From: an uncultured Acidobacteriota bacterium
Lineage (GTDB): Bacteria > Acidobacteriota > Vicinamibacteria > Vicinamibacterales > CAVVIG01
Length of the DNA: 64,000 nt
Assembly: GCA_963729215.1 (NCBI GenBank)
Contig: CAVSND010000030.1
Span: 74,239-138,238 of the forward strand
Direction of reading: 5' to 3'
In this document: positions 3,308 to 63,752 of the stretch, one piece after another
Numbering within the stretch: position 1 is the first letter of the stretch
Layout of the letters: each line of letters begins with the position of its first letter
Program-made: the position numbers and the translations under genes
Notes under the pieces: generated by a model
Seen by the model: only the letters and a program-made list of their open reading frames with translations
What the model was told of the DNA's origin: nothing
The model's database searches: none

Positions 3308-3341
3308 CTTCAGCCCCCAATCCTAGTCATGAAATGCTTTT

Positions 3342-3413
3342 CACGAAGACACGAAGATCACGAAGTTACCTGGAACCGCCCCCGCAGACTTCGTGACTTC
3401 GTGATGTCACGTG
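3342..3413. repeat. palindrome built from CACGAAGA(T) tandem units (3 units, 21-nt loop, about 2.5 inverted units)
   Basis: CACGAAGA CACGAAGAT CACGAAGT ..loop.. ACTTCGTG ACTTCGTGATG TCACGTG. It sits between the Vgb-like stop (3417) and the tannase start (3307). The same unit occurs at 44669..44735. Confidence 0.8.
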
Positions 3414-4479: not shown

Positions 4480-7039
4480 TTGCCCAGCACGAGGGTGAAA
4501 GTCAAGCTGCGTCGGGTGTCGTCGTTCGCGGGCCTCACGTTGGCACTCTGGCTGGGCATCCTCTGGGTTGCCCTGTCGGCCGTGTCAGCGGTATCGGGTT
4601 CGAGTCCTGTACGCGCCGCTCGCGGCGTCCCGGCTCCCCAGGCACCGGTTCCCTCCCACGCGGCGGCTGCTCAGGATATTCCGGCGGACGCCGTCGCCCA
4701 GCGTGCGCTGCTCGACAAATACTGCGTCACCTGTCACAACCCCCGAACGAAATCGGGCGGCCTGGTTCTGGCCAAGGACGCGATTGACGTGGCGCAGCCC
4801 CCGGAACACGCTGAAGTCTGGGAAAAGGTCATCCGGAAGCTGCACGGACGGATGATGCCGCCCCAGGGCATGCCGCGCCCGGACGAGGCGACGCTCGACA
4901 CCTTCGCGACGTCGCTTGAACGGTCCATCGATCGCGTCGCGCTCACCAGGCCCAACCCTGGCCGCTCTCCGCTCCACCGGCTGAACCGTTCCGAATATGC
5001 CGCCGCCGTACGCGACGTGCTCGCGCTCGACGTGGACGCGACGGCGCTCCTGCCGGCCGATGACGAGGCAAACGGGTTCGACAACATCGCCGATGTCCTG
5101 AAGGTCTCGCCGTCGCTGCTCGAGCAATATCTGACCGCCGCGCGCAGGATCAGCGCGCTTGCCGTCGGCGATCCAGGGACGACGCTGGTCGGCACGGTCT
5201 ACCGCGTGCCGCCCGATCGCGCGCAGGAAGATCACATCGAGGGCCTGCCGCTCGGGACACGAGGCGGCATCCTTGTGCGGCACAACTTCCCGCTCGACGC
5301 CACCTACGAATTCAACGTGGTCCTCCTGCAGAACATCGTCGGCTACGTCCCCGGCCTCGAGTGGCCGCACGAGCTGGAGATCAGCATCGACGGCGCACGC
5401 GTCTTCCTGGCCCCCGTCGGCGGCGCCGAAGACAACAAGCTGTCGGACACGAACCTCGCGCAGACGAAGGAGACGCTCGATCGCCGGCTTCGAACGCGTG
5501 TGCCGGTAACCGCCGGGCCACATGCCGTGGGCGTCACGTTTCTCCGGCGGAACTCGGCAGAGTCCGACGAACCGCTGCAGCCGTTCACGCGCAATCTCGA
5601 TCTGCAGGACATGAACGGGTTCCCGACGATCAACTTCGTGCAGATCACCGGGCCCTTCGCCGCAACCGGACCCGGCGACACGCCGAGCCGCCGGAAGATT
5701 TTCGTCTGCCGACCGCCCGACGAACGCGCCGCGGCCGCGCGGACCGGTGGAGACGAGGGGTCCGCGTGCGCGAAGCAAATCCTCTCGACGCTCGCGCGCC
5801 GCGCGTACCGACGGCCTCCGACCGACGCCGAGATCGACAGCCTGCTGGCGTTCTACAACACGGGCCGCCGCCGCGGCTCGTTCGACACCGGAATCCAGGA
5901 ATCGCTGACGCTCCTCCTCGCCAGTCCGACGTTTCTTTTCCGCGCCGAGCCGGATCCTCCGCAGGTTGCCGCGGGCACCATCTATCCGGTCTCGGATTTC
6001 GAGCTGGCGTCGCGCCTGTCGTTCTTCTTGTGGAGCACGATTCCCGACGACGAGCTGTTGAGCGTCGCGGCGCAGGGCAAGCTTCGGGATCCGGGCACGC
6101 TGGAGAAGCAGGTGCGGCGCATGCTCGCCGACCCGCGGTCGAAGGCTCTCGTCGACAACTTCGCCGCGCAGTGGCTGTTCCTGCGGAATCTCCAGAGCTT
6201 TGTCCCCGACAGCGACGAATTTCCCAACTGGGACGACAACCTGCGCCAGGCGATGCGAACGGAAACGAGCCTGTTCTTCGAGAGCATCATGCGCGAGGAC
6301 CGGAACGTCCTCGATCTGCTGACGGCTGATTACACGTTCGTCAACGAGAGGCTGGCACGGCATTACGGCATTCCGAAGGTGTACGGCAGCCAGTTTCGCC
6401 GGGTGACGATCACGGATGAGAACCGGCGCGGGCTGCTCGGGCAGGGTTCGGTGCTCGCCGTGACGTCCTATCCGAATCGGACGTCGCCCGTCCTGCGCGG
6501 CAAGTACATCCTCGAAAATATCCTCGGCACGCCGCCGCCGTCGCCTCCCGCCAACGTGCCGCCGCTCAAGGAAACGGGCGAAGACGGCCAGGCGCTGTCC
6601 CTGAAGGCGCTCATGGAGCAGCACCGATCGAACCCGGCGTGCGCGACCTGCCATCGCGTCATGGATCCGCTGGGCTTCTCGCTCGAGAATTTCGATGCCA
6701 CGGGCAGGTGGCGCCTGAAGGAAGCCGCCGGCGTCGTCGATGCCTCGGGGCAGCTCGCCGACGGCTCGCCGGTGGATGGTCCGGCCGCGCTGCGCAAGGC
6801 CATCTTGAAGCACCCCGAGCAGTTCGTGCGCACGATGACCGAGAAGATGCTGACGTACGCGCTCGGCCGCGGCCTCGAGTACCACGATCTGCCGACGGTC
6901 AGGTCGATCGCGCGTGATGCCGCCTCGCAGAACAACCGCTTCTCGTCACTCGGTACTGGGCATCGTCCGGAGCACGCCATTTCAAATGAAGCTAAAGGCG
7001 CCAGATTCCGTCGTAGCGGCCGGATTCAGCCGGCCGTGA
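4480..7039 (+). pseudogene. PSD1-like heme-binding protein (PSCyt CxxCH + DUF1587/1592/1595/1588/1585), frame broken at about 6952
   Basis: Motifs DKYCVTCHNPRTKSGGLVL, RLSFFLWSTIPDDELL, NFAAQWLFLRNL, TSPVLRGKYILENILGTPPPSPPANVP, ACATCHRVMDPLGFSLENFD. After RFSSL one extra G shifts the frame. The corrected tail VLGIVRSTPFQMKLKAPDSVVAAGFSRP* stops at 7037-7039. The listed ORF to 7344 is wrong-frame read-through. The start is more likely GTG 4495. Confidence 0.85.
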
Positions 7040-7064
7040 ACGTCCGCCTGAAGGCGGACGCTAC
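7013..7064. repeat. REP-like double-hairpin element (reverse orientation copy)
   Basis: GTAGCGGCCGGATTCAGCCGGCCG-TGAAC-GTCCGCCTGAAGGCGGACGCTAC. It overlaps the last codons and stop of the DUF1592 gene. Confidence 0.85.
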
Positions 7065-7076
7065 GAGAGCATTCTT

Positions 7077-8406: not shown

Positions 8407-10008
8407 ATGCGCGCGAAGTGGCTGCTCCACGCGGGGTTCGCACTTGCATTGGCGGTGCGTAGCGTCTGCCTTCAGGCAGACGGACAGGACGTCCGGCTGA
8501 AGCCGGACGCTACGGGTGTTCGTCTGGTGGAGGCCGTAAAAGCTGGCGACAAGGCCGCCATCACGACGCTGCTGAAGCAGAAGTCCGGCATCAATACGCC
8601 CGAACCGGACGGCACGACCGCGCTGCACTGGGCTGTTCGCCAGGACGATCTGGAGCTGACCGATCGCCTGCTGCGCGCCGGCGCTGACGTCAAGGCGGCG
8701 AATCGGTACGGGATCACACCGCTCTATCTGGCCAGCCTCAACGGCAACGCCGCCGTCATCGACAAACTGATCAAAGCCGGCGCAGACGCGAACGCCGCCG
8801 TGACTGAAGGCGAGACGGCGCTGATGACCGCTGCCCGCTCCGGCCACGTCGAGGCCGCCAGGGCACTGATCGCGCACGGGGCCGTGGTCGATGCCCGCGA
8901 GCAGTGGCGCGGCCAGACGGCGCTCATGTGGGCCGCGGCCGAGGGCCACGCGGACATGATCAAGGAGCTCGCCGCCCGCGGCGCAGACGTCAACGCGCGG
9001 TCAACCACGCAGCAGTGGGAACGCCAGGTGACCGCCGAGCCTCGCGAAAAATGGCTGCCGCCGGGCGGACTCACGCCGATGCTCTTCGCGAGCCGACAGG
9101 GATGCGTCGAGTGCGTGCGGGTGCTCGCTTCACTCGGCGCCGACGTGAACGCCACCGACCAGGACGGCATCAGCCCGATGATCTCGGCGATCATCAACGG
9201 GCATTTCGATGTCGCGGGCGCACTGCTCGAAAAGAACGCCGACCCCAACATTGCTGATGCGACGGGCCGGACGCCGCTGTATTCGGCCGTGGACCTGAAC
9301 ACCGTGCCCGACTCGAACCGTCCGGCGCCCCACGTCGTCGACAACCAGATGAGCGCGATGGAGCTGATCGCGTCCCTTCTCGACCACGGCGCGAACCCAA
9401 ACGCGCGGCTGAAGAAACAACAGCCGTACCGGACGAAGGTCGACCGCGGCAGCGACAGCATGCTCGGCGCCGGGACGACCCCGTTCCTGCGGGCGGCCAG
9501 GGCCGGCGACGCGCCGGCCATGCGACTCCTGCTCAAACGGGGCGCGGATCCGAAGATCGCCACGGGCTCTGACGTCCCGGTTGACGTCAGCCAGCCCGCG
9601 CGGCGCGCGCCCGGGGGCATCAACGCCCTGATGGCGGCGGCCGGACTGGGCTCGAAGGAAGAGGATACGGTCGGCCGCAGGAAGACCGAACGTCAGTCGA
9701 TCGAAGCGATCCAGGTATGCCTCGAAGCCGGCGTAGACATCAACGCCGTGGACGGCCGGGGTCAGACCGCCTTGTACGGCGCGGCGCTGCAGGGTTACGA
9801 CGAGGTCGTGAAATTTCTCCTCGCGCACGGCGCGAAACTCGACATCAAGGATCAGCGCGGTTTCACCGCGCTTGACGCCGCCGAAGGAAAGGCCGGCGGG
9901 TTCGGCTTCGGCGGCGGCTCCGCCAATCCGCACCCGGCCACCGCGAAGATCCTCCGGGACTCGATGAGCCCGCCCGCAACTCCGACGTCAACTCAGCAGG
10001 TCCGATAG
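8407..10008 (+). CDS. ankyrin-repeat protein, probably secreted
   Basis: Many G.TALH.A...G...V..LL..GADVNA-type repeats. The N-terminus MRAKWLLHAGFALALAV is signal-like. The start lies 2 nt after the DUF1552 stop. A REP copy lies inside codons 18-36. Confidence 0.85.
   Translation: MRAKWLLHAGFALALAVRSVCLQADGQDVRLKPDATGVRLVEAVKAGDKAAITTLLKQKSGINTPEPDGTTALHWAVRQDDLELTDRLLRAGADVKAANRYGITPLYLASLNGNAAVIDKLIKAGADANAAVTEGETALMTAARSGHVEAARALIAHGAVVDAREQWRGQTALMWAAAEGHADMIKELAARGADVNARSTTQQWERQVTAEPREKWLPPGGLTPMLFASRQGCVECVRVLASLGADVNATDQDGISPMISAIINGHFDVAGALLEKNADPNIADATGRTPLYSAVDLNTVPDSNRPAPHVVDNQMSAMELIASLLDHGANPNARLKKQQPYRTKVDRGSDSMLGAGTTPFLRAARAGDAPAMRLLLKRGADPKIATGSDVPVDVSQPARRAPGGINALMAAAGLGSKEEDTVGRRKTERQSIEAIQVCLEAGVDINAVDGRGQTALYGAALQGYDEVVKFLLAHGAKLDIKDQRGFTALDAAEGKAGGFGFGGGSANPHPATAKILRDSMSPPATPTSTQQVR
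8459..8513. repeat. REP-like double-hairpin element with compensatory stem changes
   Basis: GTAGCGTCTGCCTTCAGGCAGACG-GACAGGAC-GTCCGGCTGAAGCCGGACGCTAC. Both stems differ from the consensus by paired substitutions. Confidence 0.85.
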
Positions 10009-28257: not shown

Positions 28258-28337
28258 CTCGAGTGCAGCGGCAGGGGCGTTAGAGCATATTTCAGACTCG
28301 CGTACCATCTCCGATCGTACCCACGCCGACGCGTCAC

Positions 28338-28775
28338 GTGGTGGTCGGTGGGCCCTGCGTCGGGCACGGTCGTCAGCCCGGAAAAACGACGCGGCGGCAT
28401 CATCGTGTAATGTCATGGCGCTCGGCCCAGGTTTGGGCTCTCGCGGTGGTGGCCGCCGCGTCGTTTTTCGCGTTCGAGACGGGCTGAGACCTATCGCCCG
28501 ACGCAGGGCCCGCCGACCACCGCCTGACGCACACGGGTGCGTGAGACTCCCACGGATTAGCCAGCCCCCGGATCAGGGACGAGGAGTCGCGGTCTCGCAT
28601 CGTGGCTGGGCCAATGATGGAAGGCGGCGTGACCGTCGTCAGACGATAAAACGCCGGGTTTTTCCACGCCGAGCTTCGTATTGGCCAAGCCGCGATGCGG
28701 GACCGCGACGGTGGTTCGACGACTCGCCGTAAAAACGCTATGTCCCCCGCGCTTCGCACTCCGGCGAGCGTCGTC
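28338..28775 (+). ncRNA. candidate structured RNA / palindromic element cluster (unclassified)
   Basis: H1: 28338-28365 pairs with 28496-28523 (28 bp, 2 G-U), 28374-80 with 28480-86, 28381-98 with 28452-69 (18 bp perfect), plus 9 more bp with 3 G-U. H2: 28597-28615 pairs with 28680-28698 and encloses two small hairpins. H3: about 28718-28775. I saw no known RNA-family motif. Confidence 0.3.
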
Positions 28776-30974: not shown

Positions 30975-31070
30975 GGTGTCTGGGTCCTTTCCTTTCAGGA
31001 AATGCGCTTCTGAACCATTAGACGGCGCACCGCCTGTCAGGGACGTGGCTGGGACATTACAAAGAGGAAA

Positions 31071-31135
31071 GGTTCGAGAGGTTCGAGAGGTTCGAGGGGT
31101 TCGAGAGGTTCTAGGGGTTCGAGAGGTTCAGGTGG
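31071..31135. repeat. solitary tandem array of 7 GGTTCGAGA-type units
   Basis: GGTTCGAGA GGTTCGAGA GGTTCGAGGG GTTCGAGAG GTTCTAGGG GTTCGAGAG GTTCAGGTGG. It encodes the last residues (HLNLSNP*) and the stop of the histidine kinase. The unit is the same as at 63166-63752. Confidence 0.85.
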
Positions 31136-42548: not shown

Positions 42549-42594
42549 GTAGCGTCCGCCTTCAGGCGGACGTCCGGCTGAAGCCGGACGCTAC
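42549..42594. repeat. REP-like double-hairpin element (no spacer)
   Basis: GTAGCGTCCGCCTTCAGGCGGAC-GTCCGGCTGAAGCCGGACGCTAC, between convergent genes. Confidence 0.9.
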
Positions 42595-44643: not shown

Positions 44644-44668
44644 AGTCCTGCGCAGCTAGAACAATGAA

Positions 44669-44735
44669 CCACGAAGATCACGAAGGTCACGAAGAAGGCT
44701 TAACCTGTAGAGAGAACTTCGTGATCTTCGTGATT
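44669..44735. repeat. palindrome built from CACGAAGAT tandem units (16-bp perfect stem)
   Basis: CACGAAGATCACGAAG (44670-85) pairs with CTTCGTGATCTTCGTG (44717-32). It is followed by the tandem CTGCTCTCGA/CTGCTCTCGC (44742-61). It lies between xth and pepT. Confidence 0.85.
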
Positions 44736-44770
44736 CGAGGATCTGCTCTCGACTGCTCTCGCAACCTGTC

Positions 44771-50188: not shown

Positions 50189-50190
50189 CC

Positions 50191-50232
50191 CGTTCCTCGT
50201 TTTCCGTTTTCCGTTCTACGTTCTACGTTCTA
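50191..50232. repeat. six tandem heptamers CGTTYYM
   Basis: CGTTCCT CGTTTTC CGTTTTC CGTTCTA CGTTCTA CGTTCTA, between convergent stops. It encodes the ..RT* end of the minus-strand gene. Confidence 0.85.
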
Positions 50233-51227
50233 GTTCCCAGGACTGGCAGCTTGATCAGCTTCGCCGGATTGTCCTTGAACATCATGTTCAACTCTTTCTC
50301 GGTGAAGCCGGCGCCGCGCAGCGCCTTGGCCGCCAGCGCCAGGGCGTCGGGATGGTTGTTGCCGGGCAAGCCGCTGTCGCTCGAGACAAAGGTCATTGCG
50401 GGTCCCACCTTGCGAATCGCGTCGAAGGCGCGGGCCTGGCCTGCCCCCTCGCGCGAGACCGTTCCCGCGGTGACCTCGATGTAGGCGCCCAGCCTGGTCG
50501 CCTCCTGCATCTGCTCGACGGTCATCGCCCCGCCAAGGCCGAGCAGCGGGTGCGTGACGATCATGCGCTGGACACCCCGCTTCTTGGCTTCGCGCATGAT
50601 CAGGAACGCCTCGTCCGGCGTCACGTGGCCGGTCGCAAGCGTCAGATCGTTCTGAGCGATGACCGAGAGCACTTCGAGCACCTCGGGGAGGAGCTGTCCG
50701 TTGCGCGACACGGCGACGAACGGGCGGTTCTCCTTGCCGGCCTTCACTTCCGGCTCGGAGTCGTGCGTCGGCATCCAGACGATGCGTCCCAGATGGCCGA
50801 CGACGTCGGCCATGTACCGGACCGCCTGCGGATTCATTCCGCCGACCGGGGTGTCGAGCGACACGCCGCCGAACACTTCGAACCCCGGCGTCGCGTACTT
50901 GCGCGCGAGGTACGCGAGTCCGGCCGTCTCGGTCCAGTGATTCTTCAGGAGCACGCCACGCATGCCGCGCTCCTGTGCCAGCTTCGCGACCTCGAAGCCG
51001 TCCCACGAGCGCGGATAGCTGTCCGGATCGCAGTGGGCGTGCAGGTCGATGGCGCCGATCAGTGCGGGGTCGGTCAGATGCTTGTCGACGGAGGGCGGAT
51101 ATTTTCGGTTCTTATACGACTCCCAGGCCGTCTGCGCACGAAGCGTGACGCCAGCCGTCCGCAACCCGACGGCAACAGCCATCACCGATCCGAGCACCAC
51201 CATGAACCGCTTCTGTCCTGCCGTCAT
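50223..51227 (-). CDS. amidohydrolase-fold metal-dependent hydrolase-like protein (secreted; DUF6282-like)
   Basis: Signal/TM MVVLGSVMAVAVGL. IDLHAHCDPD... and VTHP.. are His clusters of TIM-barrel hydrolases. The family name is from memory only. Confidence 0.5.
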   Translation of the reverse strand: MTAGQKRFMVVLGSVMAVAVGLRTAGVTLRAQTAWESYKNRKYPPSVDKHLTDPALIGAIDLHAHCDPDSYPRSWDGFEVAKLAQERGMRGVLLKNHWTETAGLAYLARKYATPGFEVFGGVSLDTPVGGMNPQAVRYMADVVGHLGRIVWMPTHDSEPEVKAGKENRPFVAVSRNGQLLPEVLEVLSVIAQNDLTLATGHVTPDEAFLIMREAKKRGVQRMIVTHPLLGLGGAMTVEQMQEATRLGAYIEVTAGTVSREGAGQARAFDAIRKVGPAMTFVSSDSGLPGNNHPDALALAAKALRGAGFTEKELNMMFKDNPAKLIKLPVLGTRT

Positions 51228-51240
51228 CGATCACCTCGTT

Positions 51241-51390
51241 CCGTGGAGAACGCCGGACCCGTGGAGAACGCAGAGGAGGGTCATAACGCAGAGATCGCAG
51301 AGATCGCCGAGAAGAGTACTTTGGAAAGTCAGTCTTTCTCTGCGATCTCCGCGATCTCTGCGTTTGAGAATGTCTCCGCGTTCTCAAAAG
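51241..51390. repeat. about 150-nt imperfect palindrome built from GCAGAGATC and GGAGAACGC units
   Basis: Inner arms GCAGAGATCGCAGAGATCGCCGAGAAGAG (51288-316) and TCTTTCTCTGCGATCTCCGCGATCTCTGC (51333-61) match at about 25/29. The centre is ACTTTGGAAAGT. Outer arms are TGGAGAACGCCGGAC and GTCTCCGCGTTCTCA. Confidence 0.85.
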
Positions 51391-54300
51391 TCGAATTGCC
51401 CACCGATCTTGAAATACCGCGCCGGCGCAATCCTCGTCGGCGTCAGCCAGGCGCCGCCCGGCACGAACGAATTGTTGAAGGTGATCACTGTATCCGAGTT
51501 CGAGAGGTTGTAGACGTCGGCCGAAATAATCGCCCGCCTCGTCGTCCCGAACCTCAAGACCTTACTCAGGCGAAGATCGAAGTTATTGCGCACGGGCCCA
51601 AATACTGTGCCCGGCTGGATCAGGTTCACCGTGGCATTGGCGCCCCCCGAGAGAGGGCGGCCGAGCGGCTGCGGGCCTGCCGCGATGACCGCATTCGACG
51701 CGACATAGTTGGCGGCAATCTCCGGTCCCGGATTGCTTTGCCACGTCACGCTCGTCTGGATGTCCACCTTGGGGACCAGATACGAGGCGAGCCCGGTCAC
51801 CGACGTGCGGTACGGTTCGACGACACGGCAATAGGGGTTCGTCACGGACGTTAAGAGTCCGCCTGCCGGCACGATGGCCGTGCTTGGCGTGGCCTCCGGC
51901 ATCAGCGCCCGCACCGCGCAGGCGTCCGTCAGCCGACGCCCGGTGCTCGTGCCCCCTTGCACGATAATGCCGTTCTGCAGGCGCGCGTTGACGCTGACAT
52001 CCACTCCCTGCCAGTTCATGGTCTCCTCGCCGACCACGGACCCGAGTTCATGGAGGTTGCTGACCTGACCGACTTTGTTCGGGTTCAGATCATAGAGGCC
52101 GCTGACAACCTGCCCCCCGCCCCCGGGTAACCGCGGATCGAGCGGGGCCCGGACGCTGAACGGCGTGTAGTCGGAGATGAGTGTCGATGTGTTGTCGACA
52201 ATGGACAAGTTGCCCCACGAGTTCCGGTTGTAGCCGACGGTCAACGCCACACGGGGCATGAGCTCCTGCTGCACCGACACCCCCGTCGACCAGACGTAGG
52301 GGCGGTTTCCCCAACCGGTCACCATGTTGGGATCGTAGTTGGTGTTGAAGACCTCGGTCCCGAAGGATTGATTGGCCATGGGCCCGCAATCGCGCTGCGC
52401 CGTGGGGATCGCGAGATTGCAGCCCGGGCTGTTCGTAAAGTTGAAGTTCGTCGGGTTCAGCCACGGCCGTGTCGTCATCGTGGGAATGCGGAAGATCGGG
52501 TTCATGTCCAGCCCGAACAACGAACTGAGACCTTCCACATATTTCCCGGTGTTGAATTTGACAGCCGTCTTGCCGTTCCCGAACAGATCGTAGGCCACGC
52601 CCACTCGGGGCGTGATGTCCTTCCAGGCGATCCCCTGCGTGGACCCCGTGGGAAACGACACTTGCTTCGGCATGAGGATGTAGTCCTGACCACCAATCGG
52701 GTCGGACGTGTAGTTTGTAATGCCGTTGTCCCACCGCAGGCCGCCCTGCAGCGTCAGTCTGTTTCGGGTCCACTGATCCTGCGCGTACAGGTTGATGGGG
52801 ATGACGTGGCGGCCCGTCCGAAGCCAGCCGGGATACGCGAGGTTCTCCGTGATTTGATTCGGCACGCCGTTGTTCGTCCGCACCTGGATGACGGTGCTGT
52901 CGTAGTAGTAGTTCTTCGTGGGCGTGCTGAACCCGCCCTGGTAGCCGAACTTCATATTGTGCGCGCCGCTGACGTAAGAGAGGGACGCTCGCCATTCCTG
53001 CGTCCCGATCTGGCTGGCGCTGAATCCGCCGTTCGCGAGCCCGGGGTGCCGGGAGATCAGGCCCGGGATCGAACAGTTGCAGCTCGGGATGTTGCCCGTT
53101 TGTTCGAGCTGCTGAATCATCAGCGGATTGTTGACGCCGCCGATGCCGCCGGTGCGCGGTCCACCCCCACCGCTCTGGGTGTACGTGCCCTCGTAGGTGC
53201 CGATCCCCGCCTCCGCCAGCAGCCTGGCGTTGATCGGGAACGTCCAGGTGGCCTGCTGGATGCGGGACGGTTTGAAGAGGGTCAAGCCCGTGCCGTCGGG
53301 CGTCTGCGTCGGCGTGCCGCCGCCCTCGGCGCCAATGTAGTTGTACTGTTCCTGCCAGTACAACGTCAGCTTGTTGCGTCGCGTCGCCTGCCACGTCAGA
53401 CGCCCGATGATGTGCTGGTCGAATGAGTCCGTAAACGCCGGCTGCGACAGGTCGAAATCCACCACCCACAGGTTCGGATTGTTGGCGTTCTTGTTGACCC
53501 ACATACCGGGGACCGTGCTGTTCGACCCGACCTGGCGGTAGGTCACGTAGAACCAGAGCTTGTCCCGTTTGATGGGGCCGCCACCCATGGCATCCCAGTC
53601 GTACAGGCTCTTCAGCTTCGACGGCGCCCGCAGGCCCTGGTCCTTGAGCGACTGCGTGTAGTTGTCGCCCTGCATCCCGCCTGTCGCGCCGTTGACGAAG
53701 GCGGATCCTCTGAACGTGTTGCCGCCGTCCTTCGGGGTGATGTTAAGGATCACCCCGGCGCCCTCCGCTTCACCGAGCCCGCCGGACACGTTGATCACCA
53801 CTTCCGACGCGCCGGCCGTGTTCAGGAGCTGACCGCCGGCAATGGCCTGGCCCGTGAAATCCGTGTTCAATCCATCGGTCTTCGTTCGTGAACCATAGGT
53901 GTTCCCGCCGTGGATGGTCCCTGCGAGTCCCCCGATGCCGCCCGCGATGCCACCGGAGTCGCCACCACCCACAGCGACGCCGGCCTGCGACACGTTCAGT
54001 CCGGGAATCAAGGACTGGATCCCGGAGGCATTCCGCGAGCTGGGGATGGCGGCGATCACGTCGCTGCTCACCGTCTGCTGCACGAGCACGCTCTGGACGT
54101 CCACGACCGGTGACTGACTCGTGACGGTGACCGATTCCGTCAGCGCACCAATGCTCAGATCGGCATTCACCGTGGCCACAAACCGGCCCGTGAGCTCGAT
54201 GCCATCGCGCTTCATGGTCTTGAAGCCCGCCATCGAGACCGTCACCGAGTAAGTGCCCGGCCGGAGGTCGACGACGCGGTATTGCCCCGTTCCATCAGTG

Positions 54301-54494
54301 GTGACCGAACGCACCTTCTCAATGAGGACGTCGCTCGCCACTTCCACGGTCACGCCGGGTAACACGGCACCGGACGCGTCCTTGACGAGGCCGGTAATGG
54401 CGGCCTGCGCGAGGGCAGCCGCCGGGAAGAGTAACAACACCGACAGTGCCGCTACCGACCGCCTGACAAAGCGGACCACTCCTGCTCGCTGCAT
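51384..54494 (-). CDS. TonB-dependent receptor with N-terminal CarboxypepD_reg domain (Oar-like)
   Basis: Signal; ITGLVKDASGAVLPGVTVEV..GQYRVVDLRPGTYSVTVSMAGFKT; C-terminal ..YFKIGGQFDF. The ORF is intact at 1036 aa. Confidence 0.9.
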   Translation of the reverse strand: MQRAGVVRFVRRSVAALSVLLLFPAAALAQAAITGLVKDASGAVLPGVTVEVASDVLIEKVRSVTTDGTGQYRVVDLRPGTYSVTVSMAGFKTMKRDGIELTGRFVATVNADLSIGALTESVTVTSQSPVVDVQSVLVQQTVSSDVIAAIPSSRNASGIQSLIPGLNVSQAGVAVGGGDSGGIAGGIGGLAGTIHGGNTYGSRTKTDGLNTDFTGQAIAGGQLLNTAGASEVVINVSGGLGEAEGAGVILNITPKDGGNTFRGSAFVNGATGGMQGDNYTQSLKDQGLRAPSKLKSLYDWDAMGGGPIKRDKLWFYVTYRQVGSNSTVPGMWVNKNANNPNLWVVDFDLSQPAFTDSFDQHIIGRLTWQATRRNKLTLYWQEQYNYIGAEGGGTPTQTPDGTGLTLFKPSRIQQATWTFPINARLLAEAGIGTYEGTYTQSGGGGPRTGGIGGVNNPLMIQQLEQTGNIPSCNCSIPGLISRHPGLANGGFSASQIGTQEWRASLSYVSGAHNMKFGYQGGFSTPTKNYYYDSTVIQVRTNNGVPNQITENLAYPGWLRTGRHVIPINLYAQDQWTRNRLTLQGGLRWDNGITNYTSDPIGGQDYILMPKQVSFPTGSTQGIAWKDITPRVGVAYDLFGNGKTAVKFNTGKYVEGLSSLFGLDMNPIFRIPTMTTRPWLNPTNFNFTNSPGCNLAIPTAQRDCGPMANQSFGTEVFNTNYDPNMVTGWGNRPYVWSTGVSVQQELMPRVALTVGYNRNSWGNLSIVDNTSTLISDYTPFSVRAPLDPRLPGGGGQVVSGLYDLNPNKVGQVSNLHELGSVVGEETMNWQGVDVSVNARLQNGIIVQGGTSTGRRLTDACAVRALMPEATPSTAIVPAGGLLTSVTNPYCRVVEPYRTSVTGLASYLVPKVDIQTSVTWQSNPGPEIAANYVASNAVIAAGPQPLGRPLSGGANATVNLIQPGTVFGPVRNNFDLRLSKVLRFGTTRRAIISADVYNLSNSDTVITFNNSFVPGGAWLTPTRIAPARYFKIGGQFDF

Positions 54495-54587
54495 CTCGCC
54501 CTCCTCTGCTACGTAAAGATGCGGTAAGCCTAGCGACTTGATGTTCGTCCCGCTCTACCTAAATGGAGGTATGAACACGCGCGCCGA

Positions 54588-54616
54588 TTGACTTGCGTGG
54601 GGCGCGGCGTCAGAAT
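54588..54616 (+). promoter_or_regulatory. sigma70-type promoter TTGACT-17 nt-CAGAAT, 9 nt upstream of ATG 54626
   Basis: Hexamers and spacing were read directly. There is no SD before the ATG. Confidence 0.5.
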
Positions 54617-54625
54617 CGCCGCCCG

Positions 54626-57553
54626 ATGCCGCGCGTATATCGCCTGGCGCTCGTCGTCCTGCTGGCGTTTCCTGCAGGCGCCTACTCGCACCCGTTCACG
54701 CCATCACGTCACGAGCCGCTCGGCGACTACACGGTCGCGACGTGGGGCGAACGCGACGGTGTGCCTCCCGGACGCATCCGCACGATCAGGCAGGACGGCG
54801 ACGGCTACCTGTGGCTGGCCACGGACGCCGGACTCATGCGCTTCGACGGCGCCAGGTTCGACGAGTGGCGCGGAACCGGCAGCAGCCGGCTGCCGTCCGG
54901 CGCAGCGACCGCGCTGCTGATCGCCCGCGATCGGAGCCTCTGGGTGGGCGTCACCGGCCCGTCGGCGATCGCCCGGGTCCGCAACGGCGCCTTCACGTTG
55001 TTCGGTCCGGGGGAAGGGCTCACCGGACGTTACGTGCTGTCGTTGACCGAGGATCGGGCCGGGACGATCTGGGCCGCGACGTTTCAGGGACTCTTTCAGT
55101 TTCGCGGCGATCGCTGGCGCGCGGTCGGGGCCGCCGAAGGACTGGCCGAAGGGCCGGTGCTCGGCACATACGAAGATCGCGAAGGACAGCTGTGGGTGGC
55201 GACGCAGTCGGCCGTGTTCAGGAAGGCTTCCGGCAGCGACCACTTCGATCAGATCGACGTGATCGGGATTTCCAGCAACCTCTGGCAGAGTTTCAGCGAA
55301 GACGCCGCGGGCAGGGTCTGGATGACCGATTTCACCGAGGGCTACCGCCTCCCGGGGCATCGTCCGCCAGGCGTCGAGAAATCTCCGCGTCACGGCTTCG
55401 GCGTCCAGCTCCTGCACGATCGACGGGGAGACTTGTGGGTCGCGACGCAGGGACAGGGCCTGTGGCGCGTCCGCGCCGACGCGACGTCGGATGGCTTCCA
55501 GGCCGCCACGATTGCCGACGGACTCCTGAGCGATTCGGTGCAGGCCCTGTTCGAGGACCGCGAGGGCAACCTCTGGATGAGCACGCGCGACGGTCTCCAG
55601 CGGCTGTCACCGAGGCGCGTCAGGCCGATCAGGAACATGCCGATCGGCACGACCGTCGCCGTGACGCCGGACGGCAGCACCTGGGTGGGCACGGCTGGCG
55701 GGCTCACGCAGTTCTCGGCGGCGGGCCGGCGCGACTACGGTCCGGCGGACGGGCTGCCCGGATCGGTGGTGATGGCCCTGCAGGCCGGCGAAGGCGACGA
55801 CCTGTGGGTCTCGACCGAGCGCGGGGTTTCGCATTTCGCCCGGGGGCGGTTCTCACCGGTCCTGATTCCGCCAGGCGACGGGAGTCACCGCGTCACGGGC
55901 ATGGTCGTCGCCGGCGGTACGTTGTGGCTGCGTGACTTCCACAGCCGTCTGTCGCAGTGGAGCGCAGGGCACACGACGGTGCCGGACGCAGTCCCCGACA
56001 TGTTCCTGAAGGGCGTCACGACACTGCTCGCCGATCGCGCCGGGAGCGTCTGGATCGCTGCCGGAGGACAGATAGGCGTGGTGCCGTCGAACGGCCGCTT
56101 CCGCTCCTACAACCTTTCGATCGGCAGCATCGCCTGCATCTTCGAGGATGCGGGCGGCACGCTCTGGGTCGGCGGCGACGACGGTCTCAGCCTGCTGTCC
56201 GGCGACCGCTTCATTCCTGTCACGCACGGTGACGGATTCCCGGCCAACGTCCGGACCATCGTCGAAGACGACCTGGGATTCCTGTGGGTCGGCGTCGCCT
56301 CGGGCATCCTCCGCCTCGATCGACGCGAGCTGGTCGAGGCGAGCACGAATCCAGGCCATCCGCTGCGTTACCGGTTGTTCAACGCGGCTGACGGCGTCGC
56401 AGGCGCGCCGATGGGCGAAGGACGGCACTCCTCGGTGCGCGCGAGCACGGGCAAGCTGTGGTTCCTGACCACCAGCGGCGTCACGGTGGTGGACCCTCAC
56501 AATCTCGGCGAGTCGCGGCCGATGCCGCCGGTCCGGATTGAGACCGTCACCGCCGACTCGCGAACGCTGGACGCCACTCCCGGCCTCCAGCTCGTTCCCC
56601 GGACGTCGCACGTACAGATCGCGTTCAGCGTCCTGACGCTGACCGATCCGGCCAGGGTTCGTTTCCGGTATCGCCTCGACGACTACGATCGCGACTGGGT
56701 GGACGCCGCGGCCGCGCGGCAGGCCTCGTACACCAACCTGCCCCCCGGACACTACCGGTTCCGCGTCCTGGCGAACGGCGGCGACGGCGTCTGGCGCGAC
56801 CCGGGCGCCGTCTGGGACTTCGGCGTCGAGCCGATTTTCTATCAGACGAAGTGGTTTCAGGCGCTGTGTTTGTGCGCGGTCTGCCTGATGGTGTACGCAT
56901 CGTGGCGGGTGCACGTCCGCCAGGTCCGCCGCCAATTCGCACTGGTACTCGCCGAGCGGATCCGCATGAGCCGCGCCATCCATGACACGCTGCTGCAGGG
57001 GCTGGCGGCGCTCGCGCTGCAGGTCGATGACTTGTCGCACACGGTGGCGACGTCGCCGCAGTCGGCACGCGACCGCATGCTGCGCATCCGGCGGCAGGTC
57101 GAGGACTCGATTCGCGAAGCACGGCACTCGATCTGGGACTTGCGCTCGCCCATGCTGGTGTCCCGCGATCTACCCAGGGCGCTTCGCGAGGCCGGCGAAC
57201 GCGTTATCGCGGGCCGGCCGGTGGAACTCGACGTCAAGGTCTCAGGCTCGGCCCGGACATCGGCACCGCTGGTGGACGAACAGCTTCTGCTCATCGGCCA
57301 GGAGGCGCTCAGCAATGCCGTCCGTCACGGCGGCGCCACCATCGTGACGGTCGAACTCGATTACCGCGATGACGAGACGCGGCTTCGCGTGAGGGACGAC
57401 GGGTGCGGCTTCGATCCAGACGAAGCGAGCCGGCGGCAGGATCGCTACGGGCTCGTGAGCATGCGCGAGCGCGCGGAACAGGTGCGCGGCCACGTCGTCA
57501 TTTCCTCCGTGCCCGGCAAAGGCACGGACGTCCAGGCCATTGTTCCCGCATAA
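54626..57553 (+). CDS. sensor histidine kinase with periplasmic two-component-regulator propeller repeats, Y_Y_Y domain, HisKA_3 and HATPase_c
   Basis: Many G.LW.GT..GL..F repeats; FRYRLDDYDRDW..YTNLPPGHYRF; TM; IHDTLLQGL H-box; EALSNAVRHG; RDDGCGF. Confidence 0.85.
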   Translation: MPRVYRLALVVLLAFPAGAYSHPFTPSRHEPLGDYTVATWGERDGVPPGRIRTIRQDGDGYLWLATDAGLMRFDGARFDEWRGTGSSRLPSGAATALLIARDRSLWVGVTGPSAIARVRNGAFTLFGPGEGLTGRYVLSLTEDRAGTIWAATFQGLFQFRGDRWRAVGAAEGLAEGPVLGTYEDREGQLWVATQSAVFRKASGSDHFDQIDVIGISSNLWQSFSEDAAGRVWMTDFTEGYRLPGHRPPGVEKSPRHGFGVQLLHDRRGDLWVATQGQGLWRVRADATSDGFQAATIADGLLSDSVQALFEDREGNLWMSTRDGLQRLSPRRVRPIRNMPIGTTVAVTPDGSTWVGTAGGLTQFSAAGRRDYGPADGLPGSVVMALQAGEGDDLWVSTERGVSHFARGRFSPVLIPPGDGSHRVTGMVVAGGTLWLRDFHSRLSQWSAGHTTVPDAVPDMFLKGVTTLLADRAGSVWIAAGGQIGVVPSNGRFRSYNLSIGSIACIFEDAGGTLWVGGDDGLSLLSGDRFIPVTHGDGFPANVRTIVEDDLGFLWVGVASGILRLDRRELVEASTNPGHPLRYRLFNAADGVAGAPMGEGRHSSVRASTGKLWFLTTSGVTVVDPHNLGESRPMPPVRIETVTADSRTLDATPGLQLVPRTSHVQIAFSVLTLTDPARVRFRYRLDDYDRDWVDAAAARQASYTNLPPGHYRFRVLANGGDGVWRDPGAVWDFGVEPIFYQTKWFQALCLCAVCLMVYASWRVHVRQVRRQFALVLAERIRMSRAIHDTLLQGLAALALQVDDLSHTVATSPQSARDRMLRIRRQVEDSIREARHSIWDLRSPMLVSRDLPRALREAGERVIAGRPVELDVKVSGSARTSAPLVDEQLLLIGQEALSNAVRHGGATIVTVELDYRDDETRLRVRDDGCGFDPDEASRRQDRYGLVSMRERAEQVRGHVVISSVPGKGTDVQAIVPA

Positions 57554-58184
57554 CCACGGCGAACGGCGCATTCGCGTGCTCTGCGTCGACGATCACCGTG
57601 TGATGCTGGACGGCCTCTCCCTGCTCATTGGCAGACAGCCGGACATGGAGGTGGTGGCCTCGGCCACGAGCGGCGAGGAGGCGGTGGAGCTGTTCGCGCG
57701 ACACGAACCCGACGTGACGTTGATGGACCTGCAACTGCCGACGATGAGCGGTCTGGAGGCCATCCAGACCATCTGCCGCGACCGTGAGGGCGCTCGCATC
57801 GTCGTGCTGACGATGTATCAGGGAGACGAGGACATCTACCGCGCGCTCGAAGCGGGGGCCGCGGCGTACGTCCTGAAGGACGCGCTCTCGGACGATCTGG
57901 TGTGCGTCATCCGGGATGTCCACACGGGCAAGCGTCCAATACCCTCGGACATCGCCGCGACGCTCGCCACGCGCCGGGAACACGCGGCGCTGACGCCGAG
58001 GGAAGTCGAGGTCGTGCGGCACGTCGCCGAGGGCCTTCGCAACAAGGAGATCGCGTTCGCGCTGGGCATCACCGAGCAGACGGCCAAGGTCCACGTGAAG
58101 AACATCCTGGCCAAGTTGAACGTGAACGACCGCACCGCCATCATCCCCATCGCGCTCAGGCGAGGCATCATTCACATACGGTGA
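57540..58184 (+). CDS. NarL/LuxR-family response regulator
   Basis: IRVLCVDDHRVMLDGL..DVTLMDLQLP..; C-terminal LTPREVEVVRHVAEGLRNKEIAFALGITEQTAKVHVKNILAKL. The start is uncertain (TTG 57540 / GTG 57576). Confidence 0.85.
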   Translation: MFPHNHGERRIRVLCVDDHRVMLDGLSLLIGRQPDMEVVASATSGEEAVELFARHEPDVTLMDLQLPTMSGLEAIQTICRDREGARIVVLTMYQGDEDIYRALEAGAAAYVLKDALSDDLVCVIRDVHTGKRPIPSDIAATLATRREHAALTPREVEVVRHVAEGLRNKEIAFALGITEQTAKVHVKNILAKLNVNDRTAIIPIALRRGIIHIR

Positions 58185-58237
58185 GCTCGTGGCTCGTGCT
58201 CGAGCTCGTGGCTCGTCGTGGCTAGTGGTCGGTGGTC
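58183..58237. repeat. tandem CTCGTGG/CTCGTG-type short repeats between convergent stops
   Basis: GAGCTCGTGGCTCGTGCTC GAGCTCGTGGCTCGTCGTGGCTAGTGGTCGGTGGTC. It encodes the ..TTDH* end of rnc. Confidence 0.75.
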
Positions 58238-59178
58238 AGGCGGCTGAGCGCGAGGCGGGCGGCTTCCTGCTCCGCCTCCTTCTTGCTCGGCCCGGTCGCG
58301 CGCGCCAGCGGCTCCCCCGCCACCAGGACTTCCACGTCGAACAATTTCTGATGATCCGGCCCCGCCGCGCCGACCACCCGATACTCGGGCAGCGGACGGT
58401 TGCGCCCCTGTACGAGCTCCTGCAACGTCGACTTGTAGTCCTGCGCCGAGACGCCGTCGCGGCGCAGGTCGTCGATGAAGCCGCCCAGCTCGCGCACGAT
58501 GAACGCCCTGGACTGCTCGATGCCGCCGTCCAGGTACATCGCGGCGATCAACGCCTCGCACCCGTCGGCCAGCAGGGCCTGCTTCCGCCGGCCGCCGGTC
58601 TTCTCTTCGCCGCGTCCGAGCAGCAGGTGGTCGCCAAGCCCCAGCCGCTCGGCCACGCGCGCCAGCGTCGCCGTGGACACCAGCATGGCCTTCATCTTCG
58701 ATTTCTCGCCCTCATCGCAGTCGGGAAACTCACGGAACAACAGGTCGGCCACGATGAACCCGAGGACGGCGTCGCCCAGGAACTCCAGGGACTCGTTGTC
58801 CACGACGCCGCCGCTCACGTCTTCGTTCGCGCGGGACGTGTGCGTCATCGCGTGCTCGAGCAGTCCGCGGTCGCGGAATCGGTAAGCGATGGCGGTCTGC
58901 AGCGTCTCGAACTCGTCGCGCAGGCGCACGAGCTGCCCGCTGGACAGCTCGGTACGGTGGCCATCGATGATGCGGCGGGCCTCGTCCGCGTCCTCCTCCC
59001 GCACCGAGATGCGCACCTCGCCGAGACCGTTGACGGTCAGCGGAAAGATGTTGTGCGGCACATCGGACGTGATGACCGACGGCACGCCGTTCGCCTCGAG
59101 CAGCCCCCGGACGATGCTGGCTTCCACGTCCGACTGCGTCCGGAAGATGACGATGAGATCAGGCACGAGTGCGATCAA
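58222..59178 (-). CDS. rnc: ribonuclease III with about 85-aa N-terminal DUF2007-like domain
   Basis: RNase III signature ESLEFLGDAVLGFIVADLLF; dsRBD ..DYKSTLQELVQ..LPEY...GPDHQKLF.VEV..; the N-terminus LIVIFRTQSDVEASIVRGLLEANGVPSV....EVRISVREEDADEARRII resembles DUF2007. Confidence 0.85.
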   Translation of the reverse strand: MIALVPDLIVIFRTQSDVEASIVRGLLEANGVPSVITSDVPHNIFPLTVNGLGEVRISVREEDADEARRIIDGHRTELSSGQLVRLRDEFETLQTAIAYRFRDRGLLEHAMTHTSRANEDVSGGVVDNESLEFLGDAVLGFIVADLLFREFPDCDEGEKSKMKAMLVSTATLARVAERLGLGDHLLLGRGEEKTGGRRKQALLADGCEALIAAMYLDGGIEQSRAFIVRELGGFIDDLRRDGVSAQDYKSTLQELVQGRNRPLPEYRVVGAAGPDHQKLFDVEVLVAGEPLARATGPSKKEAEQEAARLALSRLTTDH

Positions 59179-63165: not shown

Positions 63166-63230
63166 TTCGAGGGTTCGAGAGGTTCGAGGGGTTCGAGAGG
63201 TTCGAGAGGTTCAAGAGGTTCCGGAGATTC
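63166..63230. repeat. left inverted arm of GGTTCGAGA tandem units
   Basis: TTCGAGG GTTCGAGAG GTTCGAGGG GTTCGAGAG GTTCGAGAG GTTCAAGAG GTTCCGGAG ATTC. It starts 1 nt after the dedA stop. Confidence 0.9.
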
Positions 63231-63252
63231 GTCGGAGCGGCGGGCATGCTTT

Positions 63253-63684
63253 GTGCTCCCACGAACCTCCGTGGCTGGCGTGTCGCGCTACGAAGACCTT
63301 GTCGCATGGCACCTTGCGCACGAATTGCAGCGGGAGGTGTTTGCACTGACTGCAACAGGGCCGGCGTCGAGGGATTTCAGATTTCGCGATCAGATTCGCG
63401 ACTCGTCGTCATCCGTCACACGCAACATCGCGGAGGGGTTTGGCCGGTACCGGCCGGGCGAGTTCGCCAGGTTTCTCGACATCGCCAGAGGGTCGCTGAC
63501 CGAAACCCACAACAGCCTGCGCGACGGTCACGACCGTGGTTACTTCACAGCGTTCGACACCGACCGGATGCAACTTCTCGCGGGACGAGCGGCGAAGGCC
63601 ATCACCGGTCTGATCCGCTACCTGCGGACCTGCGCGCGTAAAAATACCGCCGCTCCGTCTCCGCGAATACCGCGAACCTCTTGA
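63253..63684 (+). CDS. four-helix-bundle protein (23S rRNA intervening-sequence protein / S23p family, TIGR02436-like)
   Basis: SRYEDLVAWHLAHELQREVFALT...FRFRDQIRDSSSSVTRNIAEGFGRYRPGEFARFLDIARGSLTETHNSL. The true start is probably GTG 63271 or 63280. The stop TGA lies inside the right arm. Confidence 0.8.
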   Translation: MLPRTSVAGVSRYEDLVAWHLAHELQREVFALTATGPASRDFRFRDQIRDSSSSVTRNIAEGFGRYRPGEFARFLDIARGSLTETHNSLRDGHDRGYFTAFDTDRMQLLAGRAAKAITGLIRYLRTCARKNTAAPSPRIPRTS

Positions 63685-63752
63685 GCCCTGAACCTCTCGA
63701 ACCTCTCGAACCCCTCGAACCTCTCGAACCCCTCGAACCCTCGAACCTCTAG
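63674..63752. repeat. right inverted arm (GAACCTCTC/GAACCCCTC units), reverse complement of 63166-63230
   Basis: GAACCTCTTGAGCCCTGAACCTCTCGAACCTCTCGAACCCCTCGAACCTCTCGAACCCCTCGAACCCTCGAACCTCTAG. It contains the stop codons of the 4HB gene and of cutA. Confidence 0.9.

Follow-up and report, generated by a model that had tools for sequence, protein, structure and literature searches.

The spacer between a TonB-dependent receptor gene and a DUF6282 gene in an uncultured Acidobacteriota bacterium is filled by a long palindrome, which raises the question of whether this structure serves the two genes that flank it or belongs to a family of elements found elsewhere. We analysed the locus within a 64-kb stretch of DNA, hereafter called the window. 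The receptor gene (CarboxypepD_reg plus outer-membrane beta-barrel) lies at 51384-54494 on the minus strand, upstream of the hairpin, and the DUF6282 gene lies downstream of it at 50223-51227, also on the minus strand. An exact look-up of the DUF6282 protein returned no identical sequence on record. A first-pass annotation had described a nested palindrome of about 150 nt at 51241-51390, and the sequence agrees with that description. The element also takes up the whole of the spacer as had been reported, with the receptor TGA inside its outer arm and the next gene starting at 51227. Immediately 3' of the element (51225-51237, minus strand) are a Shine-Dalgarno-like GAGGTGA and the ATG of the DUF6282 gene.

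A consensus scan of 51000-51700 returned no terminator-like or promoter sites. The DUF6282 start lies 14-45 nt past the stem, which is too close for a promoter of its own, so this gene is probably read through the hairpin. The hairpin is thus probably contained within a receptor-DUF6282 transcription unit. The RNase III gene rnc (Ribonuclease_3 plus dsrm) is also encoded in the window, at 58222-59178 on the minus strand, about 7 kb from the hairpin.

Read in the mRNA sense (minus strand throughout), the element begins with an outer 5' arm, GAGAACGCGGAGAC (51372-51385), which overlaps the receptor TGA (complement of 51384-51386). It is followed by a 5' bulge (51365-51371), which together with two flanking bases forms a diverged 9-nt unit, TTCTCAAAC, that keeps the register. 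The inner 5' arm, AACGCAGAGATCGCGGAGATCGCAGAGAA (51336-51364), comprises three GCRGAGATC units and leads into an A/T-rich apical loop of 22 nt (51314-51335) that contains a small ACTTT/AAAGT inverted repeat. This loop is the site at which related elements hold a gene. The descending side consists of the inner 3' arm, TTCTCGGCGATCTCTGCGATCTCTGCGTT (51285-51313), a 3' bulge of 9 nt that represents one diverged unit (51276-51284), and the outer 3' arm, CTCTGCGTTCTC (51264-51275). At the far end, the outer 3' unit occurs as an 18-nt tandem duplication (two copies of GCGTTCTCCACGG, 51241-51263), which is specific to the window and absent from the three related contigs L001-L003 described below.

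Each inner arm spans 29 nt (51285-51313 and 51336-51364); the two are 93% complementary and separated by 22 nt. Their presence had been recognised at first reading, with a match of about 25/29 between 51288-316 and 51333-61; the arms stand, while their boundaries move by about 3 nt and the complementarity is revised slightly upwards. In the outer arms, GAGAACGCAGAG at 51264-51275 pairs with CTCCGCGTTCTC at 51374-51385 over 12 nt (92%). A second outer-arm copy on the left side was likewise recovered as an exact duplicate, since CCGTGGAGAACGC at 51241-51253 repeats 51259-51271 at a spacing of 18 nt. The centre, ACTTTGGAAAGT, had been called palindromic, and it does hold an inverted repeat of 5+5 nt around GG, although it is not a perfect palindrome.

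The proposal that the arms are built from two different tandem units did not survive, because both are variants of a single nonamer in one 9-nt register, with the consensus GCRGAGAYC. The 5' half can be written in this register as GAGAAC|GCGGAGACA|TTCTCAAAC|GCAGAGATC|GCGGAGATC|GCAGAGAA. At lag 9 the self-match of the element reaches 0.48-0.51, whereas the remaining lags between 3 and 13 give 0.13-0.34. No further copy of the exact unit occurs within the 64-kb window.

The element is predicted to form a long and very stable nested stem, composed of the 29-nt inner arms and a 12-bp outer stem, as the initial reading had anticipated. For 51228-51400 read in the mRNA sense (minus strand), the folding energy is -86.9 kcal/mol; 200 dinucleotide-shuffled versions gave -52.3 +/- 4 (z = -8.65), and none of them was as stable. 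The plus strand of the same interval reaches -82.0 kcal/mol (z = -6.2). Sense and antisense energies are also about equal across the orthologues and the sister hairpins, among which the better-folding strand flips. With such an inconsistent strand preference, folding energy is unable to identify a functional RNA strand.

A search of a genome collection with the DUF6282 protein positioned the window among uncultured Acidobacteriota similar to Vicinamibacterales and identified three collinear Acidobacteriota MAG contigs, L001, L002, and L003, whose DUF6282 proteins are 92%, 90%, and 86% identical to that of the window. The hairpin is present at the orthologous spacer in all three, with the outer 3' arm missing from L003. 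Between the window and these relatives, the inner arms are identical at 159/174 positions (91%), the third codon positions of DUF6282 at 781/1002 (78%), and the loop and bulges at 47/96 (49%; 38-55% in individual comparisons, with a poorly conserved 5' bulge region). The arms are thus better conserved than both third positions (Fisher p = 1.4e-5) and loop and bulges (p = 1.6e-14), indicating that something keeps them alike. Covariation support is absent among the four orthologues, in which none of 48 pairs shows a compensatory change. Given this result and the flipping of the better-folding strand, the constraint on the arms cannot be assigned to RNA pairing on one strand. L003 has also undergone a deletion equivalent to window positions 51559-58104, which removes most of the receptor gene and a two-component system, and it has nonetheless retained the hairpin. 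The more distant receptor homologues L022 and L028 have no hairpin after the stop codon, which suggests that its occurrence at this position is limited to a close clade.

The same hairpin occurs far beyond this spacer. We scanned metagenomes with GCRGAGATCRCRGAGATC as the query, and similar hairpins were found at unrelated loci, in at least about 18 contigs among the matches listed. A search for the units elsewhere, as proposed at first reading, was thus positive for metagenome contigs, and the 64-kb window contains no more copies of the exact unit. Neither of the two outcomes named beforehand as speaking against the element was obtained, since it folds better than every shuffled control and is present at the orthologous spacer as well as at other loci. 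The copies from soil metagenomes repeat the nested architecture amid unrelated genes. Four of them (L050, L127, L131, and L143) carry the complete composite, namely GAGAACRCNGAGAC, a bulge of 7-13 nt, AACGCAGAGATCGCRGAGATC and its continuation, a short loop, and the mirror image. The outer arm GAGAACRCNGAGAC was found in L050, L127, L131, L102, L171, and L174, and L100 has only the inner arms in common with the element. The neighbours of these copies (an ECF sigma factor, a serine hydrolase, a 2Fe-2S protein, and others) are unlike those of the element under study, and the hairpin of L106 lies in the spacer between divergently transcribed genes.

Based on these copies, we defined a family architecture consisting of GAGAACRCNGAGAC, a bulge of 7-13 nt, AACGCAGAGATCGCRGAGATCRCRGAG, a loop or cargo, and the mirror image. 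Alignments of the 5' and 3' halves cover 13 elements, and, judged from its sequence, the element is a member that fits this architecture throughout. Members of the family usually abut gene ends. Contigs with G+C contents of 44-69% hold a looser class of hairpins, whose ends read ACC...GGT(GAA). The long loops of L085, L130, and L156 display no convincing homology to one another.

Some relatives carry a gene between their arms. In L102, the same outer and inner arms as in the element enclose a loop of 485 nt directly after the stop codon of a fumarase gene. Its inner 5' arm is identical to that of the element (29/29), its inner 3' arm differs by 2 mismatches, and its loop contains an ORF of 136 aa that matches TIGR04256 (GxxExxY, E = 2.5e-42). 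The site recurs in L171-173. The element of L174 adjoins the same FdhE-like gene with the ORF reversed relative to it, and in L175 and L176 a GxxExxY gene lies in the aroC-def spacer; the arms are the same in all of these contigs. Near-identical arms enclose a GxxExxY gene (PD-(D/E)XK-like) at two genomic sites. On the 52%-GC contig L148, a GxxExxY gene is placed between GCAGAGAAC/GCAGAGATC arrays, and these arms are related to those of the element.

We located further GxxExxY carriers, cultured organisms among them, through a survey of a plasmid database. In Bacteroides finegoldii, the order is radA, TTCACCACAGAGGACGCAGAGGACACGGAG, GxxExxY, and CTCTGTGACCTCTGTGTCCTCTGTGGTGAA, forming inverted arms of the ACAGAG type. 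In Bernardetia, the gene lies between inverted arms of ACAGAGA units, and in Gemmatirosa kalamazoonensis it is flanked by two complete GCAGAGGAC hairpins. The Sphingomonas gene has no arms, the genes of Prevotella, Fusobacteria, and Persicobacter are flanked by direct repeats, not inverted arrays, and the inverted repeat that flanks the Treponema gene is no better than those of shuffled controls. As judged by these distant genes with direct repeats or without arms, the link between arms and cargo is real but lineage-specific.

The window also contains a parallel cassette built from another nonamer. At 63166-63750 (plus strand), inverted GGTTCGAGR arrays (63166-63230 and 63673-63750) surround an ORF at 63253-63684 that encodes a 23S_rRNA_IVP / four-helix-bundle protein (PF05635, E = 3e-25; TIGR02436, E = 2.6e-23; PDB 2GSC, E = 1.4e-10). 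This cassette takes up the space between two convergent genes, with their stop codons close on either side. Its homologues in L164, L167, L168/169, and L170 have inverted tandem-unit arrays on both sides, and those in L165/166 retain the 3' array alone. When both types of cargo are pooled, arms are present in at least one representative of each of the 8 independent sites (8/8).

Two gene-less sister hairpins were also detected in the window. The first is made of CACGAAGAT nonamers between two plus-strand genes (44666-44736, plus strand) and is conserved in L001; the second is made of TCACGAAGA units between two minus-strand genes (3341-3404, minus strand). An HMM scan of the window and of L001-L043 revealed no further IVP or GxxExxY genes, and viral contigs scanned with a single IVP and a single GxxExxY protein yielded no relatives. 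Neither cargo protein is a known transposase. The GxxExxY protein has no solved homologue, and its comparison with PADLOC gave only a weak match to Cas4 (E = 0.005); the IVP protein had no match there. The family itself is large, with more than 4000 GxxExxY relatives retrieved in one search.

Based on these findings, we consider it fairly probable that the element between the receptor and DUF6282 genes belongs to a dispersed family of hairpin cassettes, as a copy that lacks the gene. This reading builds on what was observed directly: the structure itself, which is conserved in the orthologous spacer, copies of it scattered over unrelated contexts, and relatives that carry a gene. A member of the family consists of an array of units of about 9 nt and its inverse array, and these two halves pair into a long, interrupted stem. 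In full-length relatives with near-identical arms the loop holds a GxxExxY gene of about 130 aa, and in the parallel family with other nonamers, a gene for a 23S-rRNA-IVS-protein (Avd-like). The element studied here may have kept the arms and lost the gene, or never had it, and would then stand to the full cassette as a MITE stands to its parent element. Descent could have run in either direction, through loss of the gene from a full cassette or through insertion of a gene into a pre-existing hairpin. The family probably represents selfish, IVS-like hairpin cassettes, and the present copy may owe its persistence mostly to being a selfish or neutral piece of DNA. Its arms could be kept alike by selection on pairing, or by homogenisation between arms or copies.

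The element might still affect the transcript in which it resides. A read-through receptor-DUF6282 mRNA would hold the 29 + 12-bp stem in double-stranded form. RNase III could cut this stem, which, by analogy with IVSs, would uncouple the cistrons and leave the receptor mRNA with a protective stem at its 3' end. Such cleavage, in line with the dsRNA substrate proposed at first reading, is plausible because the stem is long enough, rnc is present in the window, and an IVS analogue exists. We treat it as a side effect and not as the reason for which the element exists.

The opposite emphasis deserves most attention among the alternatives. REP stems act as 3' stabilisers in operons of E. coli, and the hairpin could similarly be a dedicated intercistronic RNA element that controls how much receptor is made relative to DUF6282, acting either as an RNase III processing site or by stabilising the 3' end, with its spread being secondary. 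The co-oriented genes, the stop codon within the stem, the Shine-Dalgarno sequence directly after it, the very stable fold, and the nearby rnc all agree with such a role, and RNase III cuts IVS stems of comparable length (PMC4990558). That the arms evolve more slowly than third codon positions is equally compatible with selection on an RNA function here. Against this, neither strand is consistently favoured in folding, compensatory pairs are lacking, and L003 keeps its hairpin after losing most of the receptor gene. Copies also lie in unrelated operons and in the divergent spacer of L106. At another orthologous spacer, moreover, nonamer hairpins and GTAG-tagged REPs replace each other: a CACAGAGCA hairpin in L001-L003 corresponds to a REP doublet of the window (42549-42594). 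The strand symmetry, the 0/48 compensatory pairs, and the unrelated contexts point away from a dedicated RNA function, which we regard as unlikely.

A purely local origin is less probable still. In this scenario, replication slippage would have produced a nonamer array and a template switch its inverse copy, resulting in an immobile palindrome unrelated by descent to those at other loci. Solo tandem arrays do occur at gene ends (window 31065-31132 and 50190-50237; L003 9488-9628), the units of the hairpins vary between loci in length (7, 8, or 9 nt) and sequence, and strand-symmetric pairing is what a DNA-level process is expected to produce. Independent origins would not, however, reproduce the whole composite of outer arm, 7-13-nt bulge, inner arm, and mirror image that is common to unrelated loci and to gene-carrying copies, nor does this scenario sit well with a 5' arm that is the same as that of L102 at 29/29 positions.

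The strong, G+C-rich stem straight after a stop codon might also suggest a factor-independent terminator or attenuator between the receptor and DUF6282 genes. This is very improbable, since no U tract follows the stem in this or any sister element (the sequence that follows here is CACGGAACGAGGTGATCGATG), the consensus scan returned no terminator-like site, the DUF6282 start beyond the stem leaves no space for a promoter, and the stems are far longer than typical. The proposal of a REP/BIME element mobilised by a RAYT tyrosine transposase is scarcely credible: it would account for an intergenic palindrome downstream of a coding region in a window where a genuine GTAG-tagged REP family coexists, but it is at odds with the missing GTAG or CGTC tag, with stems of 29 + 12 bp against 5-13 bp (PMC3733652), with arms made of tandem arrays, and with associated genes that are GxxExxY and IVP rather than RAYT. 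A CRISPR-like interpretation of the element was rejected on defining features.

How does a family of gene-less and gene-carrying hairpin cassettes relate to systems that have already been described? We place the element with palindromic repeats of known kinds, those resembling IVSs and those resembling MITEs or REPs, and do not regard it as wholly new. Its closest counterparts are the intervening sequences of 23S rRNA in Leptospira and Coxiella. Their terminal complementary sequences form a long stem, and the element reaches the length of about 20-30 bp that is characteristic of them; the stem of the Coxiella IVS measures 28 bp and is excised by RNase III (PMC4990558). As here, the loop is either empty or holds a small ORF of the PF05635 family (S23p/IVP), and the IVS resides inside a host transcript and is regarded as selfish. 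The IVP gene of the window, at 63253-63684, has this architecture. The element differs in its location, since IVSs occupy helix 25 or 45 whereas it lies between protein-coding genes, and no rRNA genes are present in the 64-kb window. It also differs in that the stems of its family are tandem arrays of 7-10-nt units, and in that the cargo of its own relatives is GxxExxY, not IVP.

REP and BIME sequences are dispersed intergenic palindromes, most of which follow closely on a coding region; they are transcribed as parts of operons, and a role in mRNA stabilisation has been proposed for them (PMC3733652, PMC2817692). A REP has an unpaired GTAG or CGTC tag at one end, a 5-13-bp stem, and a unit of 20-40 bp (PMC3733652). 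The element begins with GAGAACGC and ends with GCGTTCTC, with no such tag. It measures about 150 nt, its 29 + 12-bp stems are 3-5 times longer than those of REPs and built from tandem units, and the genes found inside its relatives are GxxExxY and IVP, in place of RAYT. As a short, gene-less palindrome dispersed in intergenic DNA, it resembles a MITE, and it shares its arms with the longer, GxxExxY-carrying elements L102, L171, L174, and L175. Its ends are tandem-unit arrays, unlike the unique terminal inverted repeats of MITEs, and its gene-carrying relatives encode no recognised transposase. By eye, no target-site duplication was evident at the ends of the element or of L102, L171, and L174, and no empty site defined those ends.

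The short tandemly repeated heptamers of cyanobacteria (STRRs) form intergenic arrays whose 7-nt units vary from locus to locus and are described mainly as direct. The TAACTGA repeats of Beggiatoaceae are reported to comprise 169 direct sets and one indirect set, and a post-transcriptional regulatory role has been proposed for them (PMC4679880). Both resemble the present family as short-unit intergenic arrays that vary by locus; they differ in that they are not known as paired inverse arrays that enclose a gene. Rfam returned no matches for the whole window at the gathering threshold, only sub-threshold matches to miRNA-precursor hairpins for the element at E <= 10, and no match for the long-loop relatives. 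In the literature covered, which excludes most subscription journals, we found no description of tandem-unit hairpins enclosing GxxExxY or IVP genes. The papers that deal with these protein families treat the genes as isolated ORFs, reporting IVP genes that lie between cas genes (PMC3936711), the homology of IVP to Avd (PMC10053308), and PDDEXK_3 as a family of unknown function (PMC3424549).

The element itself is an ordinary copy of a repeat, and its interest lies in the family that it reveals. We tentatively propose that inverted arrays of short tandem units constitute an undescribed, cross-phylum class of IVS-like cassettes, which would be found at gene ends in operons, carry GxxExxY or IVP cargo, and give rise to gene-less derivatives; at present we lean against rather than towards a class of this breadth. 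If it exists, ORF-bearing IVSs of 23S rRNA would be a special case of it that landed in rRNA, the GxxExxY protein would be a candidate structure-specific nuclease for its spread, and the stems would allow RNase III to cut the insert out of host transcripts.

These findings have implications for two protein families. GxxExxY and 23S-rRNA-IVS proteins form very large families of unknown function, annotated as isolated small genes. In several lineages, both lie inside a recognisable hairpin, of which gene-less copies are common at gene ends. The hairpin thereby places these families in a genomic context and connects them, in a way that can be tested, with the rRNA inserts that RNase III excises. 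For annotation, the family explains many long stems in the spacers of Acidobacteriota, and many spurious ORFs encoded by the repeats. At the locus itself, it advises caution in regarding the stem as a bespoke regulator of a TonB-dependent receptor operon.

Additional observations concern other repeats of the window and the cargo-carrying cassettes. The GTAG-tagged REP family is represented at 7011-7066 and 8458-8514, as well as by the doublet at 42549-42594. Across the independent sites of both cargo types, the cargo gene is co-oriented with the upstream gene at 7/8 (one-sided binomial p = 0.035). A conserved sigma-54-like GG-N10-GC motif lies upstream of the IVP copies.

Inverted arrays of the nonamer GGTTCGAGR surround a 23S_rRNA_IVP gene (Avd-like four-helix-bundle) at 63166-63750 of the window. 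This cassette occupies precisely the space between a VTT/DedA gene and a CutA-like gene convergent with it, from one stop codon to the other. At the same position, L003, a collinear contig from a related Acidobacteriota genome, displays two unrelated genes instead. A solo array of approximately seven GGTTCGAGR nonamers, which has no inverse partner nearby, was found in a divergent spacer at 31065-31132; its unit also makes up the arms of the IVP cassette, at a distance of 32 kb.

For the genes carried in the loops (cargo genes), we aligned the region preceding the IVP ORF of the window (63222-63300) with those of five contigs encoding homologues (L164, L165, L167, L168, and L170). All six IVP cargo genes displayed a conserved sigma-54-like GG-N10-GC motif (TGGCRY-N5-KTGCT), 20-40 nt 5′ of the start codon. 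Where the IVP cargos have this motif, cargo genes of the GxxExxY type (PD-(D/E)XK-like) have CTGACACG-N4-TTGCA. These motifs suggest that the cargo genes are transcribed from a promoter of their own, which is possibly RpoN-dependent.

In two of the contigs encoding GxxExxY cassettes, L174 (9805-10480) and L171 (9865-10500), the cassette lies beside a shared FdhE-like gene, at its 3′ end, yet the cargo ORF has opposite orientations relative to that gene. This difference is consistent with either an inversion between the arms or an independent insertion. In place of inverted arrays, more distant GxxExxY genes (from Prevotella, Fusobacteria, and Persicobacter; plasmid-database records L182, L183, and L184) have direct repeats of 40-60 nt on both sides; therefore, the geometry of the flanking repeats varies by lineage. 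In the aroC-def spacer of L176, a second, partial GxxExxY ORF (4593-4856) directly follows the first, and it is missing from the otherwise identical L175.

The repeats found at gene ends have a fast turnover in the lineage of the window. Members of a GTAG-tagged REP family (GTAGCGTCCGCCTTCAGGCGGAC) occur as head-to-head doublets at 7011-7066, 8458-8514, and 42549-42594. At the last of these sites, the 42.5-kb spacer, the collinear contigs L001 (18990-19080), L002 (18925-19015), and L003 (19050-19145) carry a hairpin of CACAGAGCA nonamers instead of the REP doublet; therefore, different palindromic elements swap at one gene end. A GAGCCACGAGCTC tandem stretch, itself palindromic (58185-58216), comes after the RNase III gene (58222-59178), which encodes an N-terminal DUF2007 domain; in L003, this position (9488-9628) is occupied by approximately 130 nt of CTGACTG/CCGACTG heptamers. 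L003 also lacks 6.5 kb of the window (51559-58104, at L003 9628-9709), comprising most of the TonB-dependent receptor gene, a Reg_prop/Y_Y_Y histidine kinase, and the neighbour of this kinase. A 3′ remnant of the receptor is left, fused to another ORF, and the hairpin 170 nt downstream is intact.

Some members of the hairpin family displayed loops of 140-220 nt (L156 1053-1270, L085 167-358, L130 6845-7110, and L029 13768-14002). Because these loops hold further nested hairpins of other unit types, such as ACGGAG units within GCAGAG arms, they suggest repeated nesting of elements inside loops. The window also contains nested long inverted repeats within about 400 nt of apparently non-coding sequence (28331-28709). 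Here, 35-nt arms separated by 130 nt enclose perfect arms of 18 nt, and 30-nt arms with a 64-nt spacing follow; Rfam had no match.

Two gene-less hairpins of CACGAAGAT-type units lie between co-oriented genes (3341-3404 and 44666-44736), the second of which is kept at the orthologous spacer of L001 (16421-16500). Finally, an array of tandem heptamers (CGTTTTC, CGTTCTA) at 50190-50237 runs across the DUF6282 stop codon.
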